Shown: one piece after another, positions 6,161-55,045 of the stretch | How the letters are laid out: every line of letters starts with the position of its first letter | Numbering within the stretch: position 1 is the first letter of the stretch | NCBI GenBank assembly: GCA_944363035.1 | Contig: CALVTS010000004.1 | Location: forward strand, 601-64,600 | Direction of reading: 5' to 3' | DNA length: 64,000 bases | Origin: an uncultured Clostridia bacterium | GTDB lineage: Bacteria > Bacillota > Clostridia > Christensenellales > CAG-917 | Notes under the pieces: generated by a model | What the model was told of the DNA's origin: nothing | The model's input: the letters and a program-made list of their open reading frames with translations, nothing else | The model's database searches: none | Made by a program: the position numbers and the translations under genes

Positions 6161-7477
6161 ATGCGTGCGATAACAGCCATTTCGACGCCCGTAGGGGCGG
6201 GTGGTATCGGGATACTGCGCGTGTCCGGCGAGGACGCGCTGAAAGTGTCCGATACCATTTTCATTTGCAAGGACGGAGAGCCTCTTTCAAAGAGGGCTCT
6301 CGTCATGCGTTTCGGGACGTTTGACGCAGGAGATTTCCGCGACAAGGGTTACGCGGTCTATTTCCCCGCCGCCAAGGCGTATACGGGGGAGGACACCGTG
6401 GAGTTTTATCTCCACGGCGGAGTGCGCATAATGCAGGGGGCGCTGGACGCCGCTTTGCGCGCGGGCGCGCGCCTTGCCGAAAGAGGGGAGTTCACCAAAA
6501 GAGCGTATCTCGCGGGCAGGCTCTCTCTCGCGGACGCCGAAGGCGTGGCGGACATGATATCCGCCGAAAGCGCCGCCGCTCTCCGCGCCGCATATAGGCT
6601 TATGGAGGGCAGGCTGAGCCGAGAGATAGACGCCCTCACCGATGAGCTGGGCGGCATCCTCACGGGGCTGGAAGCCTCTTTGGATTATCCCGACGAGATG
6701 GAGGACGAAGTCCTGCCTCCGCTCGCCGAGGAGCTCGGACGGGCGCTCTCGCGGGTGGACGCCCTGCTCGCCACGGCAAAGACGGGCAGGATGGCGAAAT
6801 ACGGCGTCACCGCCGTCCTCGCGGGCAGACCCAATGCGGGCAAGAGCTCTTTGATGAACGCTCTGCTCGGGGAGGAGCGCGCCATCGTCACGGACATCGC
6901 GGGCACCACCAGGGATACGCTGGAAGGCAGTTTCGAGTGCGACGGCGTGAGGATAAACCTCGTGGATACCGCAGGCATAAGAGAGAGCGAGGACAGGATA
7001 GAGAGCGAGGGAGTGCGGCGTGCGCTCCGCGCCGCAGAAGGCGCCGACGTGGTGTTGTATGTGGTGGACACCACCGCGCCCTGCGAGGAGGAGATACCCT
7101 CCTTCGGGGAGGCGCGGGTCTTCACGGTGCGCAACAAGTGCGACGTCACCTCCTTCAAATGTCCGCGGATGTACGGGTGCTTCGCCGTGAGCGCCTTGGA
7201 CGGCAGAGGGGTGGAAGAATTGCGCCACGCGATCGCCGCGCTCTATGCAGAGGGCAAGACCGCAGACGGAGAGATCATCACATCCGAAAGGCACAAAGGC
7301 GCACTTTATCGTGCGAAACGCGCGCTTGAAAGCGCGATATCGTCACTTGGCGGAACGGTAGACCTCACTCTCGTGGACCTCAGGGAAGCGTATGACGCCC
7401 TTGGGGAGATAACGGGGAAGACCGCCACCGAGGACGTGGTGGACGCCATATTTGCGAAGTTCTGCGTGGGCAAATGA
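6161..7477 (+). CDS. mnmE: tRNA modification GTPase MnmE
   Basis: ATG at 6161 within ORF 5786..7477 gives MRAITAISTPVGAGGIGILRVSG. G1 GRPNAGKSSLMNAL. C-terminal FCVGK. Confidence 0.93.
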   Translation: MRAITAISTPVGAGGIGILRVSGEDALKVSDTIFICKDGEPLSKRALVMRFGTFDAGDFRDKGYAVYFPAAKAYTGEDTVEFYLHGGVRIMQGALDAALRAGARLAERGEFTKRAYLAGRLSLADAEGVADMISAESAAALRAAYRLMEGRLSREIDALTDELGGILTGLEASLDYPDEMEDEVLPPLAEELGRALSRVDALLATAKTGRMAKYGVTAVLAGRPNAGKSSLMNALLGEERAIVTDIAGTTRDTLEGSFECDGVRINLVDTAGIRESEDRIESEGVRRALRAAEGADVVLYVVDTTAPCEEEIPSFGEARVFTVRNKCDVTSFKCPRMYGCFAVSALDGRGVEELRHAIAALYAEGKTADGEIITSERHKGALYRAKRALESAISSLGGTVDLTLVDLREAYDALGEITGKTATEDVVDAIFAKFCVGK

Positions 7478-10189: not shown

Positions 10190-11128
10190 ATGCAAAGCGC
10201 AAAAAAAGGGAAACTTCTGTTTTGCGGGATCGCGCTCGCGCTTGCCCTCCTGATGTGCGCCGTCTGCCTGTTTGCGGCGGCTGAGGATACCGCAAGCGCG
10301 GCAAATCTCGGGCAGGGTAGCACTGGGGACAAGGTGAGCGAGATGCAACGCAAGCTCAAAAACTGGGGATATTACGACGGCTCGGTGGACGGCATATTCG
10401 GTTCGGGCACGAGAAAGGCGGTGGAGTATTTCCAGCGCACCAACGGACTCACACCCGACGGCGTGGTGGGACGCGCGACTGCGGCGGCTCTCGGCATGAC
10501 CCTTTCCGGGAGTTCCTCGGGAGGGAACGAGTCGTCTTCCGGAGTCCTGCGCAGGGGTAGCTCGGGAGACAGGGTGAGCGAGATGCAACGCAAACTCAAA
10601 AACTGGGGATATTACGAGGGCTCGGTGGACGGCGTGTTCGGTCAGGGCACCGAGAGCGCGATCAAGTATTTCCAGCGCACCAACGGGCTCACGCCGGACG
10701 GCGTGGTGGGACGCGCGACTGCGGCGGCTCTCGGCATGACTCTTTCGGGGAGTTCCTCGGGCGGCGGCGAAAGCGTGTCCTCCTCCGATCTCGAACTGCT
10801 CGCGCGCGTGGTGTACGGCGAGGCGAGAGGGGAGGAATATATCGGTCAGGTAGCGGTCGCCGCCGTGGTGCTCAACCGCGTGGCGAGCCCGAGTTTCCCG
10901 GGCACCATCGCGGGGGTGGTGTATCAGGCGGGCGCATTCGACTGCGTGGCGGACGGGCAGATAAACCTCTCTCCCGACGACACCGCGAGGAGGGCGGCGC
11001 AGGACGCGCTGAACGGCTGGGATCCGACCTACGGCTGTCTGTTTTATTACAATCCGCGCACGGCGACTTCGGCGTGGATGCTGTCAAGACCCGTCAAACT
11101 TGTCATCGGACAACACAATTTCTGCTAG
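10190..11128 (+). CDS. sleB: Spore cortex-lytic enzyme SleB (two PG_binding_1 domains plus SleB/CwlJ hydrolase domain)
   Basis: ATG at 10190, 5 nt after GGAGG (track start 10184 is GTG). Duplicated GSSGDxVSEMQRKLKNWGYY...GLTPDGVVG modules. C-terminal LLARVVYGEARGEEYIGQVAVAAVVLNRV. Confidence 0.9.
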   Translation: MQSAKKGKLLFCGIALALALLMCAVCLFAAAEDTASAANLGQGSTGDKVSEMQRKLKNWGYYDGSVDGIFGSGTRKAVEYFQRTNGLTPDGVVGRATAAALGMTLSGSSSGGNESSSGVLRRGSSGDRVSEMQRKLKNWGYYEGSVDGVFGQGTESAIKYFQRTNGLTPDGVVGRATAAALGMTLSGSSSGGGESVSSSDLELLARVVYGEARGEEYIGQVAVAAVVLNRVASPSFPGTIAGVVYQAGAFDCVADGQINLSPDDTARRAAQDALNGWDPTYGCLFYYNPRTATSAWMLSRPVKLVIGQHNFC

Positions 11129-42204: not shown

Positions 42205-42364
42205 GTTGTCTTTGAGAGCAGGGAAGGGGCGCAAAGGGCTTTTTTAGGGAAAAGAGAGGGTATTAAAGCGTCTATTTATATTCAAAACGCTTGCGGGCGC
42301 GTCCGCGTGTGTGTATAATAGTCATACTATTGTAATCAATCCGTCAAACCTTTTCGGAGTGTAT

Positions 42365-44647
42365 ATGAAAAAAAGAATCGCAATTTTGTTGGTCCTCATA
42401 ATCGCGCTGTTCGTATGCGTCGGCGCGCTTGCGGGTTGCAACTCCATCATCGTGCTCAACGAGGACAGGGACGCCAATCAGGTGGTCGCCTCCGTGAGCT
42501 ACGAAGGGCAGACCTACAACATCCGCAAGTTCGAGTTGGAGCTCAGTTTCAATTCCTACGCTTATGTGTACCACACCTACTACGGCATGAGCTATCAGGA
42601 GGTGGCGGACTATCTGTTGCAATCCCTCGCCCAGCGTGAACTGCTCGTGCTGTTCGCCAAGGCGGAGCTTGTGGAACTTGCGGGTCTCGACGCCGCTCCT
42701 GCGGACGTCACCGTGAAGCAACTGCTCTCGGAAAGCGAGCGCGACCGCGCGGTGAAGAATGTCAACGAGGACGTCCTTTCCGCGATAAATTCCGCCGTGG
42801 AGTCCCTCATCGGCGCGAACAACGGCTCTTCCTCCGGCTCTTCGGACAAGGAAGAGTATGAGGAATACAACGGCAAGGACGCCATCACCGTCCTCTTCGA
42901 CTCTCAGGGCGGCAGCGCGGTCGAGCGTCAGCGCATAAAGAGCGGCACCACCGCTTTCGAGCCCGACGATCCCACCCGCGACGGCTACACCTTCTACGGC
43001 TGGTACACCGATCCCGAGTGCACCGAAAAGTTCGATTTCGCCACCGAACTCACCCAAAAGACCACGCTCTACGCCAAATGGGCGGAGTATCTCGAGCCCC
43101 GTCCCGTGCGCGAAGCCGAGGAGGAGGATCCCGACGCGGATTACGATCCCGACGCCTCTCTTCCCGAGGCGGATCGCGCTCCCCGCGCTTTCGACGGCGA
43201 GGATAAGCTCACTGCGGAGTACCGCAAGCTCATCATGAGCGGCGAGGTCGAGCTGGATTGCCTTTCCGCCTACTCCGAAGACAAGAGAGCGGAGTATCTC
43301 GACTTGTACCTCGACGACGCGGCGGAGGATGTCGCAAACGACTTTGCCGAGCTCCGCACCGGCTACGATTACTATCTCGACAACGAGATGAAGACCCTCC
43401 TCATCACCAGATTGGAGCGCAAGCTCGGCGAGAGCTCTTCCGTCACCGAGGCGGAGGTGCAGGCGCGCTTCGACAAGATGGTGGAGGACAACCGCGAGAC
43501 TTACGGCGGCAACCGCACCTCCTATGAGTCCGCGCTCACAGACGCGCTCGCCTCTTCCTACTATCACGAATACAAGGATTACGGGTTCGTCATCAACATC
43601 CTTCTCCGTCTGCCCGACGAGGATCTCGCCGTGCTCACCGAGATGGTGGAGGACGGGGTGTATGCCGACGGCGTCATAGAGAAAAAACGCGACGCCCTCC
43701 TCAAAGAGATGGAGATCCACGTCAGCAATCCCGACTACGATCCCGAATATACCTGCGACAAGCATCCTTGCGAAGCGGGCTCCGATTGCGATCCCATGAC
43801 CTGCCCCGAACACGAGTGCGTCGGCACCGTGAACGAGGGCGCGGATTGGAACAACATCGTGGAGTTCGTCTACAACAAGGAGACCGGTGAGGCGGAGATC
43901 AGATACAACGTCACCGCCTGCCCCTCCATGGCGTATCTGCCCGGCACCGTTCCCGCCTTCTCGGACGGCGAGCAGACGGGCATAGTGGAGCAGATCTATC
44001 AAAGTTTCGAAAAGGTCACCCAAGCCGTAAGCGACGGGATGTCCCGCGTGCTCGGAGTCTACTGGATGCGCGAGCTCGCCACCGCCTGGCTCTATCTCGT
44101 AGGAGATGACGAGGGCGGCACCACTTCGAGCTCCAACAACGGCGGGCTCGGATATATGATCACGCCCGAGGGCACGGATTCCGGCTACATCGACGCTTTC
44201 ACCGATCAGGCGCGCGCGCTCGTCAAGCAGGGCACAGGCTCCTACACCACGGGCGGGTTCGAGGAGTCCTACGTCTTCGGCGACAGCTTTATCGAGTCGG
44301 GTTCCACAAGCGGCGCATATGCCGGCATTTTCATCCTCGTCGCGACCTCCGTGCCGTATGACGACAGCCTCCTCGGCGTCGTCGAAAACGAGGACGGCAG
44401 CTATTCCGAGATCACTCTCGGTTACTCCGCCACCCCCGACGTGCTCCCCCTCGATTATGTCATAGAGTACGGTCCCACCCTCGAGGATTGCGTCACCATC
44501 CGTATGCAGATCGAGGAGACCCTCCTCTCCGGCAAACAAGCCGCCGTCTATGAGGAGACCGTCAACGCCTTCGGCGTCAAACACTTCGAGTCAAACATCT
44601 CCTATAATAGGGGGGCGTATGAGTCGTTGTGGGAGGACCTGGACTAA
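42365..44647 (+). CDS. Large PrsA/SurA-like foldase lipoprotein with inserted Listeria-Bacteroides repeat domain
   Basis: ATG at 42365 gives MKKRIAILLVLIIALFVCVGALAGC (lipobox). SurA_N-like N-terminus. ITVLFDSQGG...GYTFYGWYTDPECTEKFDF repeat. Degenerate parvulin-like GGLGYM...AFTDQARAL...AGIFILV near the C-terminus. Confidence 0.6.
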   Translation: MKKRIAILLVLIIALFVCVGALAGCNSIIVLNEDRDANQVVASVSYEGQTYNIRKFELELSFNSYAYVYHTYYGMSYQEVADYLLQSLAQRELLVLFAKAELVELAGLDAAPADVTVKQLLSESERDRAVKNVNEDVLSAINSAVESLIGANNGSSSGSSDKEEYEEYNGKDAITVLFDSQGGSAVERQRIKSGTTAFEPDDPTRDGYTFYGWYTDPECTEKFDFATELTQKTTLYAKWAEYLEPRPVREAEEEDPDADYDPDASLPEADRAPRAFDGEDKLTAEYRKLIMSGEVELDCLSAYSEDKRAEYLDLYLDDAAEDVANDFAELRTGYDYYLDNEMKTLLITRLERKLGESSSVTEAEVQARFDKMVEDNRETYGGNRTSYESALTDALASSYYHEYKDYGFVINILLRLPDEDLAVLTEMVEDGVYADGVIEKKRDALLKEMEIHVSNPDYDPEYTCDKHPCEAGSDCDPMTCPEHECVGTVNEGADWNNIVEFVYNKETGEAEIRYNVTACPSMAYLPGTVPAFSDGEQTGIVEQIYQSFEKVTQAVSDGMSRVLGVYWMRELATAWLYLVGDDEGGTTSSSNNGGLGYMITPEGTDSGYIDAFTDQARALVKQGTGSYTTGGFEESYVFGDSFIESGSTSGAYAGIFILVATSVPYDDSLLGVVENEDGSYSEITLGYSATPDVLPLDYVIEYGPTLEDCVTIRMQIEETLLSGKQAAVYEETVNAFGVKHFESNISYNRGAYESLWEDLD

Positions 44648-44769
44648 AACGCCGTCATTTGGCGAATAGCTTTGTCAAAGCCTCTGCCGTAGATGCTCAC
44701 TTACGATCAAGTAAGCTCCGCCTCTCGGCAGAGGCTTTTTCGCGCTCTTCATCCAAATGGCGACGTTTT
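44646..44769 (+). repeat. Module H1a: long hairpin starting inside the upstream stop codon
   Basis: Arms AAAACGCCGTCATTTGG (44646-44662) and CCAAATGGCGACGTTTT (44753-44769). Inner terminator-like hairpin GCCTCTGCCG...CGGCAGAGGC plus TTTTT (44680-44740). Confidence 0.7.
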
Positions 44770-44867
44770 CACCATACGAGCGTTCGGGTGAGGGTATCTC
44801 CTAACCCGTCGTACACTTATTCGGAGTGTGTTTGACTCCTACCTATACGCATTCGAAGACGGTCTCG

Positions 44868-44929
44868 CGCGCCGCTCAGCCAAACTTGCACAGCGGGCGT
44901 TTGCGCCCGCTCTTGCAAGTCGCGGCGCG
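44868..44929 (+). other. Module M copy 1: three-tier hairpin
   Basis: CGCGCCGC-tcagccaa-ACTTGCA-ca-GCGGGCG-tttg-CGCCCGC-tct-TGCAAGT-c-GCGGCGCG. Confidence 0.7.
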
Positions 44930-45177
44930 TATCTGCGACCTCGCAAGCTAGACGAATAATTAAGTAGACACGGGCTCGGTGCGCGTCGAGTCGCCCTCCT
45001 CGCCCCGCGAGCGACGTTCAGTCTATACTGGTATCCGCTTGATTATGTGAGTGCGAAACTCAAACCTTTTTCAAGAGGTGTTTTCATAAAGGCGCGGTTT
45101 GCGCCTTTATGAAAAAGTATATCCCGCATTTTAGGAGGACAGTCCTCTATTTCGAGTGGGGGAGGAGTCCCGAAGGG

Positions 45178-45230
45178 GAGGAGGGGGTACAATATTACCA
45201 TGTAAGGGGACGTAAACTCCATTTAATCAG
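45178..45230 (+). repeat. Module T copy 1 (tail module)
   Basis: GAGGAGGGGGTACAATATTACCATGTAAGGGGACGTAAACTCCATTTAATCAG. ~90% identical to the reverse complement of 51315-51367. Confidence 0.7.
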
Positions 45231-45557
45231 CCTGAATACGACGTGAACTTATTCAGAGCGTCCCTGAACCCGACGAATAAGTGTGCGTGGGGTTCAATCT
45301 AATTTAATTTGGGGGGTTACGTTCCCGCGACAGGGAAGTATTGTTGCCCCCTTCCTGCGGGTTTCCCCCAAAATCGTTCCCCCTTAAAAGGGAACCCACC
45401 ATTTTGGGGGAAACCTTCGGCGCTCGGGCATGAGGGCTACCGAGGACGGCGCCTCTGCGGCGCCGCCATGTTATGCCGCTTGCAATGCGCCCGCTTCGCG
45501 AAGAGAATGGCGCATTGCCGGCGCACTTTTCGTCTCGCCCTCGGCACTCACTTCGTC

Positions 45558-45607
45558 GCCGCCGACTTGCAAGAGGGCTACGCCCTGTGCAAGTTTGGCT
45601 AGGCGGC
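45558..45607 (-). other. Module M copy 2 (inverted orientation)
   Basis: Minus strand: GCCGCC-tagccaa-ACTTGCA-ca-GGGC-gta-GCCC-tct-TGCAAGT-c-GGCGGC. Confidence 0.65.
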
Positions 45608-45775
45608 TCCACTCCGAATAAGTTCACGTTGGGTTCAAACACACCCCGAATGAGTATACGTGGGAGTTCAAACACACCCCAAAGAGTTCACGTGGGAATC
45701 AAGCACGTTCCGAATAAATGTACGTAAAGTTCAAACACGCCCCAAATAAGTATACGTGGGAATCAAACGAGCATT

Positions 45776-49327: not shown

Positions 49328-50605
49328 GTGAAAATTGCGGCGTTAGTATTGTTTTTTGTCACTTACGTGCTTTTGTTGGCGTTGCCGAAATTCAGGTCGT
49401 ACATCGCCGCGTTCGTGGGAGTCCTCTTCCTTTGCCTCAACATCCTGCCTTGGCAGGAATTTGCCACCGCGATAGACTGGAACGTGCTCATGATTATCGC
49501 GGGCACCATGGGCATAGTCGCCCTGTTCATAGAATCCAAGATGCCGGCTCTGCTTGCCGATCTGCTCATCGCGCGTATGCCCAACGTCAAGTGGGCGATC
49601 ATCGCTCTCTCTCTGTTCGCGGGATTGGTGAGCGCGTTCGTGGACAACGTGGCGACGGTGCTGATGGTCGCGCCCATCGCGCTCAGCCTCTCCAAAAAGC
49701 TGGATATATCTCCCGTGCCCGGCATCATCGCCATCGCCGTTGCGTCCAACTTGCAGGGCGCGGCGACCCTCGTCGGCGACACCACCTCCATAATGCTCGG
49801 GAGCGCCACGGGCATGAGCTTCATAGATTTCTTTGTGATGGACGGCAAGATGGGTATGTTCTGGATAGTCCAGATCGCCGCTCTCGCCGCCACCGTATAT
49901 CTCCTCTTCGTCTTCCGCAAGGACAAGCAGAAGATAGAGTACACCGAGCGCACCGAGGTCAAGGACTTCTTCCCCTCCTTTCTCCTCATCGCGATGCTCG
50001 CCCTCCTCATCGGCACCTCCTTTGTCGCCGACAAGCCCGATGTCACTCCCGGCATCATCTGCGTCGGTCTCATGGTCGTCGGCATGATATACACCGTCAT
50101 CCGCCGCAAGGACTTTTCGGGGGTCAAAAACACCCTGAAAGAGATAGATTTCAAGACCTTGCTCCTCCTTGCGGGGATATTCCTCATCATCGGAGGGCTG
50201 GATTCCGTCGGCATCATCGACGACATCGCCGATATCCTCGTCAAGGCGAGCGGCGGCAACATCTTCGCGTTGTACTCCCTCCTCGTGTGGGCGTCCGTGC
50301 TCGTCTCTGCTTTCATCGACAACATCCCCTACGTCGCCACGATGCTGCCCGTCATAGCGGGCATAGCCACAGGCATGGGATTGGGCGCGGGGGAGAGCAT
50401 GGTGCTCTATCTCGGTCTGCTCTCGGGCGCCACTCTCGGCGGCAATCTCACCCCCATCGGTGCCTCCGCCAACATCACCGCCACCGGCATCCTCCGCAAA
50501 GAAGGCTACGAAGTCAAGACCCTCCAATACATGAAGATCAGCGTCCCCTTCACTCTGATAGCCGTATTGGTGGGGTATGGGTTGGTGTGGCTCGTCTACT
50601 CCTAA
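49328..50605 (+). CDS. ArsB/NhaD-superfamily permease
   Basis: C-terminal part of track ORF 47603..50605. GTG at 49328, 8 nt after GGAGG, gives (M)KIAALVLFFVTYVLL. FVDNVATVLMVAPIA and NLQGAATLVGDTTSIMLG motifs. Confidence 0.75.
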   Translation: MKIAALVLFFVTYVLLLALPKFRSYIAAFVGVLFLCLNILPWQEFATAIDWNVLMIIAGTMGIVALFIESKMPALLADLLIARMPNVKWAIIALSLFAGLVSAFVDNVATVLMVAPIALSLSKKLDISPVPGIIAIAVASNLQGAATLVGDTTSIMLGSATGMSFIDFFVMDGKMGMFWIVQIAALAATVYLLFVFRKDKQKIEYTERTEVKDFFPSFLLIAMLALLIGTSFVADKPDVTPGIICVGLMVVGMIYTVIRRKDFSGVKNTLKEIDFKTLLLLAGIFLIIGGLDSVGIIDDIADILVKASGGNIFALYSLLVWASVLVSAFIDNIPYVATMLPVIAGIATGMGLGAGESMVLYLGLLSGATLGGNLTPIGASANITATGILRKEGYEVKTLQYMKISVPFTLIAVLVGYGLVWLVYS

Positions 50606-50727
50606 AACGCCGCCATTTTGTGTGATACTGCGTCAGACGCCCTGCCACGATTGCTCACGTACGGAAAGTACGCCGCGCACCCGTGGACAGGGCATCTTCC
50701 TTGTCTGACGCAAAATGGCGGCGTTTT
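50604..50727 (+). repeat. Module H1b: long hairpin starting inside the upstream stop codon
   Basis: Perfect 17-nt arms AAAACGCCGCCATTTTG (50604-50620) and CAAAATGGCGGCGTTTT (50711-50727). Second tier GCGTCAGAC/GTCTGACGC. Interior unrelated to H1a. Confidence 0.7.
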
Positions 50728-50857
50728 CACCATACGAGCGTTTGGGCGAGGATATCTCCCAACCCATCGTACCATTGTTCGGTGTGTGCTTGAACTTCAC
50801 GTACACTTATTCGGAGTGTATTTTAATCTCACAAATACCCATTCGGAGACGGAACTA

Positions 50858-50915
50858 CGCGCCGCTCAGCCAAGCGTTCACAGGCGGCGTGCCGCCTCTT
50901 GAACGCCGCGGCGCG
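50858..50915 (+). other. Module M copy 3: three-tier hairpin
   Basis: CGCGCCGC-tcagccaa-GCGTTCA-ca-GGCGGC-gt-GCCGCC-tct-TGAACGC-c-GCGGCGCG. Confidence 0.7.
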
Positions 50916-51314
50916 CCCCCTGAGTGCCGAGCAACGCCGTAAACCTAAAAAGACACGGGCTTTAACTTGCGAGCGCCGAATTCCTCCTCCCGTGCCGGGC
51001 TTTCAGCAAGTGCAGGTCTCCGCTTGATTATGTGAGTGCGATATAAAAAACTTTTGTAGGAATGCGAAGTCAGTCCCGCATGATGCGGGGACTGAACTCG
51101 TTCGGACACGGGGGAGGAAAGCCCGCAGGGAAGGAGGGGGAGCCAACATTCACCCGCGAGACGTATAGCATGAGAGAGCGTGCTTGAACACGACGAATAA
51201 GTGTGTGTGGGATTCAGGCACACTTCGAATAAGTGCATGTGGGAGTCAAACACACCCCGAATGAGTATACGTGGGGTTCAAACGAGCACCGAAAGAGTGT
51301 GCGGCGTGCCCAAA

Positions 51315-51367
51315 CTAATTTAATGGAGTTTACGTCCCCTAACATGGAAGTATTGTACCCCCTCCTC
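51315..51367 (-). repeat. Module T copy 4 (inverted relative to copy 1)
   Basis: Minus strand: GAGGAGGGGGTACAATACTTCCATGTTAGGGGACGTAAACTCCATTAAATTAG. Confidence 0.7.
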
Positions 51368-51514
51368 ACTATACCCCACAAAATCACCTTTGGTGATGTT
51401 TGCGGAGACCTCGGACGCGCCGCTCAGCCAAGCGTGGTTTCATCTTCGAATGAGTGTGCGTTGAGTTCAAAGCAAAAGGAGCTCCGCTCTGTGCGAAAGT
51501 CCTTTTTTGCTTGC

Positions 51515-51541
51515 AAAAAAGCCGCTCTTTCGAGCGGCTTT
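51515..51541. terminator. Bidirectional intrinsic terminator (serves the minus-strand MFS gene)
   Basis: AAAAAA-GCCGCTC-tttc-GAGCGGC-TTT. Confidence 0.75.
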
Positions 51542-51560
51542 CGTGCTTTTGCGGGGGAGA

Positions 51561-54790: not shown

Positions 54791-54819
54791 TTGCAACACA
54801 TGGTCGGATATGATACAAT
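54791..54819 (+). promoter_or_regulatory. Sigma-A-type promoter driving the cobalamin riboswitch
   Basis: TTGCAA (54791-54796), 17 nt, TACAAT (54814-54819). Confidence 0.65.
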
Positions 54820-54825
54820 CCACTT

Positions 54826-55045
54826 GCCTCGGGTGCGGCGAAAGCCGATAAACGGGAAGTCGGGTGAAGATCCCGCACAGCCCCCGCTACTGTAAGGTGA
54901 AACGGAGCACGCCATTCCTGTATGCAGGGAGAAGGCGCCGCGGCGCGAGCCGACCGAAGTCAGGAGACCGGCCCGAGAGCGTCAAGCAGTTGTTTCGGTG
55001 GGAGACGACGGCGTGTTTCGCCTTGCCTTCCGCAGAAAACGGGAG
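54826..55045 (+). promoter_or_regulatory. Cobalamin (B12) riboswitch
   Basis: Core GGGAAGTCGGGTGAAGATCCCGCACAGCCCCCGCTACTGTAA and B12 box GAAGTCAGGAGACCGGCC. CCTCGGG...CCCGAG closing pair. Expression platform runs into the GGGAGG RBS. Confidence 0.85.

Follow-up and report, generated by a model that had tools for sequence, protein, structure and literature searches.

A three-tier hairpin as the 5' module of an apparently undescribed, non-coding repeat family in gut Christensenellales

The question raised by this locus is what kind of unit the three-tier hairpin M, which recurs in the intergenic DNA of a Clostridia chromosome, belongs to, and on which nucleic acid its fold would act. The window, meaning the whole stretch of 64,000 nucleotides analysed, is ordinary chromosome with 59% G+C and carries Mfd, a CitMHS transporter, and an MFS transporter. 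Homologues of the MFS protein assign the organism of the window to Christensenellales. Repeated DNA is located in two long intergenic regions, referred to as islands (44648-45775, region A, and 50606-51560). Other repeats in the window are a 208-nt direct repeat (10315-10521 and 10555-10761; 89% identical, ~30 nt apart), a 42-nt repeat (25468/26289), and a 23-nt inverted repeat (36723/36981).

The M hairpin in the window and in metagenomes

Sequence reading and fold prediction bore out the original prediction of three M hairpins and a 21-nt half copy, both as to their positions and as to their folding. These features are the following:

44868-44929, plus strand: M copy 1, the 5' module of type-1 element A1 (covariance model score of 81.8 bits)
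45558-45607, minus strand: M copy 3, with a divergent outer stem and the bulge CTAGCCAA, fused to a type-2 body (48.1 bits)
50858-50915, plus strand: M copy 2, the 5' module of type-1 element B1 (84.1 bits)
51415-51435, plus strand: truncated 5' half of M, a remnant of 21 nt identical to 50857-50877

The architecture of M comprises an outer G+C stem, an 8-nt one-sided bulge faced by a single C, a 7-bp middle stem, a CA/TCT internal loop, and an inner hairpin. The bulge reads TCAGCCAA or (C)TAGCCAA, being 7 nt long in copy 3. Copy 1 is laid out as CGCGCCGC / TCAGCCAA / ACTTGCA / CA / GCGGGCG-TTTG-CGCCCGC / TCT / TGCAAGT / C / GCGGCGCG. Copy 2 possesses the same outer stem and bulge, a middle stem GCGTTCA/TGAACGC, of which three of the seven pairs differ from copy 1 on both sides with pairing kept, and an inner hairpin GGCGG-CGTG-CCGCC. 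For the latter, a 6-bp stem had been proposed; the predicted fold contains 5 bp and a tetraloop instead, because 6 bp would leave a 2-nt loop. Copy 3 is laid out as GCCGCC / TAGCCAA / ACTTGCA / CA / GGGC-GTA-GCCC / TCT / TGCAAGT / C / GGCGGC. The predicted minimum-energy folds of all three copies are exactly the three-tier hairpin, with z-scores relative to dinucleotide shuffles of -5.4, -3.4, and -2.6 for copies 1, 2, and 3, respectively, with RNA parameters. Within the window, CGCCGCTCAGCCAA is confined to three plus-strand sites; given these sites and 61 family members elsewhere, the motif is not a chance occurrence. A variant of the half copy was found at the corresponding site in other strains.

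The wider motif search proposed along with the original prediction indeed yielded 61 further M copies. An exact-pattern scan of metagenomes (GCGCCGCTCAGCCAA-N25-55-CGCGGCGC) returned 85 loci, 61 of which were true hairpin matches, mostly from human-gut assemblies and 35 of them distinct; the resulting alignment of M (A3) contained 36 distinct hairpins. As the outer stem, the bulge, and the lone C of the scan-derived copies were fixed by the search pattern, these copies are uninformative on those three parts. Across the alignment, 95.2% of the cells were paired, versus 28-53% when the 3' partners were slid, and changes on both sides occurred in three of the seven middle-tier pairs and four of the seven inner-tier pairs. 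The middle tier existed in three versions, all fully complementary (ACTTGCA/TGCAAGT, ACTTTCA/TGAAAGT, and GCGTTCA/TGAACGC), thus requiring at least two compensated steps, which is a small number of events. For the inner tier, six or more versions were counted, each complementary over 4-8 bp and capped by a loop of 3-6 nt. M varied in length from 57 to 66 nt among the aligned hairpins (50-66 nt overall), which rules out a coding function. Hence, the compensatory changes claimed for every tier hold for the middle and inner tiers, whereas the outer stem, being fixed by the search, is weakly tested. Selection for pairing of the M stems is supported; the covariation events are few and their signal is clean.

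The unpaired nucleotides had been described as invariant in all copies. Of the five copies sampled independently of the pattern (L001, L002, L113 twice, and window copy 3), three have the bulge TCAGCCAA, one from L113 has TCACCCAA, and window copy 3 has CTAGCCAA, so that the bulge is nearly constant, with three versions, but not identical. A covariance model of M built from A3 retrieved almost no variants with another outer stem or bulge in 681 kb of fetched DNA (527 kb and 154 kb), the conservation of the bulge being known from few independent copies. Neither junction turned out to be invariant: the 5' junction was CA in 30 of the 36 distinct hairpins, and the 3' junction was TCT in 18, GCT in 14, and different in the remaining four. 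A specific recognition surface, as put forward originally, may reasonably be assumed for M, although no binding partner was found. In L001, a 46-nt extra hairpin was inserted directly after TCAGCCAA.

The type-1 element and the modules of the islands

M is not autonomous; it is the 5' module of a multi-copy structured element of ~300-450 nt. This type-1 element, measured from M to its 3' end, belongs to an apparently undescribed family that is non-coding, highly folded, and present in many copies in gut Christensenellales. In the window, M lies inside a ~435-nt block that is 78% identical between the two islands. The modules run from a T module at the stop codon of the upstream gene, through a 40-nt linker and two to three tandem 32-nt units, to M; a second linker then joins M to the region containing the identical 23-mer, after which come a variable hairpin and a purine-rich 3' part. 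In addition, each island holds a second, convergent element on the minus strand, which in region A is the carrier of M copy 3. Besides the M copies, the following features were delineated:

44645-44769, plus strand: T module, a ~125-nt multi-tier hairpin starting at the TAA stop of the open reading frame 42311-44647
44790-44866, no strand assigned: units of 32-nt period (CGTACACTTATTCGGAG...), running straight into M copy 1
44868-45232, plus strand: A1, type-1 element of subtype I, consisting of M, linker, multi-hairpin domain, and purine-rich 3' part; a 91.8% identical copy occurs elsewhere in strain L113
44996-45008, plus strand: pyrimidine strand CTCCTC-G-CCCCGC of the long-range helix of A1
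45034-45056 and 51019-51041, plus strand: conserved 23-mer TCCGCTTGATTATGTGAGTGCGA, the M-independent probe
45156-45167, plus strand: purine strand R1 of A1, GTGGGG-GAGGAG, partner of 44996-45008
45169-45177, plus strand: C(GAA)G mini-hairpin of A1, followed by mirror arm R2 at 45178-45187
45233-45297, no strand assigned: two units of the 32-nt type in opposite orientation, between the convergent A1 and A2
45300-45607, minus strand: A2, a chimera of a type-2 body and M copy 3, convergent with A1; its body is 80-82% identical to the type-2 copies of L036, L038, L065, L100, and L106
45610-45772, no strand assigned: five tandem 32-nt units, running into M copy 3 (minus strand)
50603-50727, plus strand: T module, starting at the TAA stop of the CitMHS gene
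50761-50856, no strand assigned: 32-nt units, running into M copy 2
50858-51175, plus strand: B1, type-1 element of subtype II (element alignment)
50981-50993, plus strand: pyrimidine strand TTCCTC-CT-CCCGT of the long-range helix of B1
51108-51119, plus strand: purine strand R1 of B1, ACGGG-GG-GAGGAA, with mirror arm R2 at 51131-51140
51188-51314, no strand assigned: four tandem 32-nt units between B1 and B2, with one more unit at 51447-51471
51302-51410, minus strand: B2, 3' fragment of an element, convergent with B1 (repeat comparison)

On its sense strand, the element adopts a conserved fold made up of M, a long-range helix closing a multi-hairpin domain, and the purine-rich 3' part. In an alignment of 32 type-1 elements (A4; 299-313 nt, two subtypes), UUCCUC-N-CCCGU pairs with ACGGG-G-GAGGAA ~130 nt downstream, giving a helix of 12-13 bp that closes a domain of several hairpins. 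Three of its pairs covary (UA27/CG5, GC24/AU4/GU4, and UA25/CG7), and the same helix appears in the single-sequence minimum-energy folds of both type-1 copies of the window. A further helix, GUGCG/CGCAU, contains a G.U pair conserved in 29 of the 32 elements. In total, the type-1 element contains at least five hairpins besides the long-range helix over ~130 nt, as well as many conserved unpaired stretches (such as AGACACGGGC, the 23-mer, and AGTCCCGCAT). Pairing of the bulge AGCCAA with UUGGUU of the 23-mer region was rejected, as that partner varies (UUGAUU, UCGGUU) with the bulge unchanged.

The purine-rich 3' part is a mirror repeat of the form R1-C(GNA)G-R2 (45156-45187 and 51108-51140; in type 2 at 45355-45377 on the minus strand), examples being GGGGGAGGAA..CCCGAAGGG..AAGGAGGGGG, GGGGGAGGAG..GAGGAGGGGG, and, for type 2, GGGGGAAA..AAGGGGG. 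An A/G position co-varies in R1, in R2, and in the pyrimidine strand pairing with R1. This three-way change suggests a triple-strand interaction of the purine-motif kind, a thin signal of about three states. At the other end of the element, some type-1 copies start with ACGGGGAGGGGTGTCAC (P58-type; L036 6240-6257, L052 1500-1520, and L093). Some copies carry a 5' extension ACGGGGAGGGGTGT, which is inverted relative to the 3' end CAACACTCCCCTGT; ACGGGGAGGGGTGTCAC and this 3' end may either serve as terminal inverted repeats or pair to close the element as a whole. Next to the copies starting with ACGGGGAGGGGTGTCAC, the first outside base frequently falls within AAAT or ATAT, and the last bases of the element are ..GAACGGAATAAAAT.

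The islands are mosaics, in which M occurs on type-1 or type-2 bodies, T single or in tandem, the 32-nt units in numbers of zero to five, and a small palindrome at several positions. Type 2 has the leader, the GTGAGTGCCGAG segment, and the 3' end in common with type 1 but differs in the hairpin-rich middle. In L036, L038, L065, L100, and L106, type-2 copies carry a plain GCCGC-AACAG-GCGGC hairpin at the position of M, which is found only on the window copy. Indeed, A2 consists of M and GTGAGTGCCGAG from type 1 joined to a type-2 body; M is thus a swappable module, found on two different element bodies.

The T module was also retrieved, with a length of ~125-150 nt, from L001, L027, L032, L036, L038, L062, L065, L073, L076, L078, L081, L100, and L103. 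Its arms (..GCGCTATTTGGCGAATAACTGCGTCAG.. / ..CTTTCCTTGTTCTTCATCCAAATATCGCC..) and its apex (CACGTACGnnAAGTACGC) are conserved; the outer and inner stems differ among copies yet remain complementary. In nearly every case, it opens with the stop codon (TAA/TGA) of the gene upstream, and it occurs singly or in tandem, with three tandem copies in L113. The 32-nt units (consensus ~CGAATAAGTGTGCGTGGGGTTCAAACACAC), located directly upstream of M, resemble the left arm of T (GCRCTNATTCGG) and are 75-88% identical between strains, versus ~98% for the flanking genes. A palindrome of ~40 nt (GGGGTCCCCGCCGAGAAATC..GATTTTTCGGTGGGGT), with two G.T positions in one orientation, was found in L001 (4393-4438, inside M), L030 (~6950-7120), L032, L035, L038, L053, L100, and L123, and not in the window. 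It occurs in tandem behind elements and inserted in either orientation within them, namely behind the M bulge, behind M itself, within the pyrimidine loop, and at the T apex. Relative to L038, the element core is deleted in L030 and L039, which appears to be due to recombination between two palindrome copies.

Genomic context and strain turnover

The elements lie in repeat islands between genes, for the most part close behind the terminator of a gene in the same orientation, and they encode no protein in cis. By rough gene calls, 26 of 39 copies share the orientation of the upstream gene, and in 25 of 37 the downstream gene is opposite. Most elements follow terminators between convergent genes, and many start 25-100 nt past the terminator hairpin. 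At least 11 M copies were found on contigs of one assembly with ~130x coverage, and 11 copies were cut by contig ends, as is typical of dispersed repeats. When the 23-mer was used as an M-independent probe of representative genomes, it occurred in two, namely Candidatus Limadaptatus stercoravium (chicken gut) and an uncultured Clostridia genome, both having M ~150 nt upstream with the outer stem and bulge as in the window. Among relatives with 73-77% identical MFS orthologues, no M was found in ~104 kb.

No associated protein emerged. Clustering of open reading frames of at least 120 amino acids around 59 loci (455 kb) revealed no protein family recurring near the copies except housekeeping paralogues (ABC ATPase, P-type ATPase), none of 64 copies had an insert of the size of an open reading frame, and a Pfam search of the open reading frames overlapping the window islands gave nothing credible. 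Similarly, scans of viral contigs with an M 16-mer and a core 19-mer gave only chance matches inside unrelated coding sequence, whole-element BLAST against plasmids (PLSDB) and a phage collection gave no match, and Rfam 15, at gathering and permissive thresholds for both islands and L036, gave only sub-threshold chance matches for the element. The sole match above the gathering threshold in the window was a full-length cobalamin riboswitch (54814-54990, plus strand; 93.9 bits). A literature search did not retrieve a published description of the family.

Strain comparison within the window species, of which the flanking genes are 97.6-98.6% identical, revealed that both islands are strain-level hot spots, where elements are replaced, internally deleted, or missing and where synteny is broken in one strain. 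At the MFS/CitMHS island, B1 of subtype II is the element of the window, L113 and L124 carry a subtype-I element 91.8% identical to window A1, L123 a subtype-I element with an internal deletion of ~110 nt, and L125 only 32-nt units without an element, the locus being rearranged (in L125, Melibiase_2 and alpha-amylase genes lie downstream of the synteny break). At the other island, the place taken in the window by the type-2 element with M copy 3 is occupied in L113 by a B1-like element. L112, a contig of the same strain that is 99.98% identical to the window, was uninformative in this respect. No target-site duplication, transposase, or clean empty site was found among the copies, and therefore the differences between strains could reflect recombination between repeats instead of transposition.

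Nature of the fold and comparison with known systems

The leading explanation, adopted tentatively, is that M represents the conserved 5' hairpin of a non-coding modular repeat family, a non-autonomous mobile or recombining element that would most likely fold as RNA and in which M would dock a putative trans factor. The elements would be non-autonomous selfish or mobile units, spread or shuffled by recombination between islands, and their propagation would depend on a folded single strand, most likely an RNA transcript. M would serve as the docking hairpin of a putative trans-acting protein; its near-constant 8-nt bulge (UCAGCCAA) between G+C-rich helices may carry sequence information, with the stems needing only to pair. 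In favour of this explanation, M was always the 5' part of a larger type-1 element in the copies examined, besides the A2 chimera.

As to the nature of the single strand, RNA may be preferred, with less than even confidence, over single-stranded DNA, for which the case is weaker. The conserved G.U pair (29/32) and the G(CUUG)C tetraloops present in M lean to RNA and to the sense strand, and the long-range architecture and the orientation bias of the upstream gene count for RNA as well. Counting against RNA and for DNA are the lack of a conserved sigma-70-type promoter ahead of the elements in a promoter search, the position of most copies behind terminators, as a result of which RNA levels could be low, the GNA triloops, the purine mirror repeat, and the lack of a G.U excess in M. 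Indeed, at the M apex and in the linker C(GNA)G, the prevailing loops are GNA triloops (N being any base) with a C-G or U-A closing pair, and GNA triloops and purine mirror repeats are better known from stable DNA hairpins and triplexes. Further, G.U and A.C cells in M number seven and six, respectively, so that M itself is without strand asymmetry.

The main rival explanation, rather doubtful but the strongest of the alternatives, is that M would act as a hairpin of single-stranded DNA for an HUH/Y1 transposase or recombinase at replication forks, with the elements as non-autonomous passengers, modelled on REP/REPIN with RAYT, IS200/IS605 ends, and integron attC sites. M folds equally well with DNA parameters (z-scores of -5.6, -3.7, and -2.9 for copies 1, 2, and 3, respectively), and this explanation would also accommodate the triloops, the co-variation of the mirror repeat with the pyrimidine strand, the balance of G.U and A.C, the negative promoter search, both element orientations within one island, the adjacency of copies to other hairpins or terminators, and the cassette-like turnover of content between strains. 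However, clustering of open reading frames revealed no Y1/HUH or integrase gene recurring near ~60 copies, the sequences contain neither a GTAG head nor RYYYAAC/GTTRRRY cores, the element has a conserved G.U(T) pair, and its conserved structure, with a long-range helix over ~130 nt and at least five hairpins, goes far beyond the known needs of transposon ends.

An extension of the preferred explanation is that the mobile unit would be the RNA itself, a large (~0.3-0.45 kb) structured molecule of a new class, free of open reading frames, terminator-adjacent, and acting at the RNA level (retro- or ribozyme-type), with M for protein or target recognition and the pyrimidine strand and mirror repeat as a triple-strand core; this is considered unlikely. 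Equally unlikely is that the family consists of genes for structured non-coding RNAs acting in trans to the benefit of the host (RNP scaffold or sponge), in which M would be a protein-binding domain and nothing selfish would be involved. The information-rich conserved fold with covariation, the many conserved unpaired stretches, and the maintenance of the family across several species, including a metagenome-assembled genome from chicken gut, would fit such genes. Yet the loci are dispensable and decaying (the 110-nt deletion in one strain, no copy in another, and the core deletions in L030 and L039), family members are exchanged at one site, a promoter signal is lacking, and M is absent from the ~104 kb inspected of relatives whose MFS orthologues are 73-77% identical.

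A cis-acting 3'-end element, either a terminator or a block to 3'-exonucleases stabilising the upstream mRNA, as proposed for REP/BIME, seems very unlikely. The location of the copies downstream of, and mostly co-oriented with, the upstream gene and the very stable hairpins would agree with it, but a terminator usually precedes the element already, one third of the copies are anti-oriented, and the conserved unpaired nucleotides and the 130-nt helix would be needless for a simple exonuclease block. Indeed, an intrinsic terminator was rejected, as M is followed by GTATCTG, CCCCCTG, or GACGAAG without a T/U run and a terminator scan omits M. Least probable is a lack of structural selection, the compensated look stemming from palindromic repeats that descend from few master copies: the three middle-stem versions, with their few events, and the many near-identical copies would allow it, but none of the three contains a mismatch, complementarity is kept in six or more distinct inner-stem versions of 4-8 bp, the slid controls reach only 28-53% pairing versus the 95% observed, and covariation is also seen in the long-range helix, whose strands do not form a local palindrome.

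If the fold acts as RNA, the preferred explanation, the family would constitute an unreported class of large structured RNA from abundant, poorly studied human-gut Clostridia, with a defined architecture and dozens of natural variants. If it acts as single-stranded DNA, an uncharacterised system of Firmicutes that mobilises DNA by recognising hairpins would be indicated. In both cases, strain-level variation and contig breaks in gut metagenomes concentrate in these islands, and the family illustrates how mosaics are assembled from several hairpin modules, namely M, T, the 32-nt units, and a small palindrome. In practical terms, the 8-nt bulge in a stable hairpin offers a target that may be expected to bind something.

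Among known systems, BOX of Streptococcus pneumoniae, BIME/REP, ERIC, and Correia elements are modular interspersed repeats, with a mobilising factor that is unknown or acts in trans. The present element resembles them in being multi-copy, intergenic, without open reading frames, hairpin-forming, and often located 3' of genes, and in its modular build with one module, here the 32-nt unit, in variable tandem number. Its copies are likewise dispersed and intergenic (61 extra, 11 in one assembly, and contig breaks), and its islands are mosaics with variable modules and tandem numbers. It differs from these repeats, to which a sequence relationship would not be expected, in having a core of ~300 nt with a covarying long-range helix and many conserved unpaired stretches, far more structure than they are known to possess. 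A miniature inverted-repeat transposable element (MITE) would combine terminal inverted repeats with a target-site duplication and with filled and empty sites; in some copies, ACGGGGAGGGGTGT is inverted relative to CAACACTCCCCTGT, no duplication and no clean empty site were found, and L125 is without the element at a rearranged locus.

Hairpin-recognising mobile systems offer a second comparison. As in REP/REPIN-RAYT and IS200/IS605, M is an imperfect hairpin with stems that are free as long as they pair and few constant unpaired nucleotides, clustering behind genes. However, no RAYT or TnpA was found near any copy, and the rest of the element is structured too. REP/REPIN is an imperfect palindrome of ~20-40 nt with a GT(A/G)G head, and this assignment was rejected, since M measures 50-66 nt, has three tiers, an 8-nt one-sided bulge, and the 5' foot ACGCGCCGC, and is without a GTAG head. 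IS200/IS605 ends and their non-autonomous derivatives (PATEs) are characterised by a subterminal hairpin at either end, and autonomous copies carry tnpA/tnpB; among 64 copies, none bore an open reading frame, no neighbour protein was recurrent, and the element ends and target sites were imprecisely defined. With attC, M shares a tiered hairpin of two paired boxes and an unpaired spacer, a variable terminal stem-loop, conservation of structure above sequence, and cassette-like exchange of locus content, but gene cassettes are missing, no integrase was seen, and the unpaired part is one-sided. An integron attC site was rejected, as GCCAAAC and GCCAAGC fail RYYYAAC...GTTRRRY on either strand and the island open reading frames are without family support.

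Structured mobile RNAs form a third group. Group IIC introns are likewise structured multi-copy mobile RNAs of similar size, located just downstream of terminators in the orientation of the upstream gene, but no copy of the element has a reverse-transcriptase open reading frame, and a group II intron was rejected for want of any Rfam group II match even at E<=5, domains V/VI included. HEARO and omega-RNAs (IscB/TnpB transposons) are also large structured multi-copy RNAs riding mobile DNA, some copies being without an open reading frame, yet Rfam gave no HEARO match and no open reading frame of IscB/TnpB size lies beside ~60 copies. IS110 bridge RNA is encoded next to a DEDD recombinase gene, and its hairpins contain two-sided internal guide loops; it was rejected, as no adjacent recurrent open reading frame of recombinase size was found and the internal loop of M is 8 nt versus 1 nt. 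A K-turn reading of M was rejected on its defining features. Overall, the element would appear to work most like the modular interspersed repeats (BOX, BIME/REP) and the hairpin-recognising mobile systems (RAYT/REP, IS200/IS605, attC), and its terminator-adjacent placement may recall that of group IIC introns.
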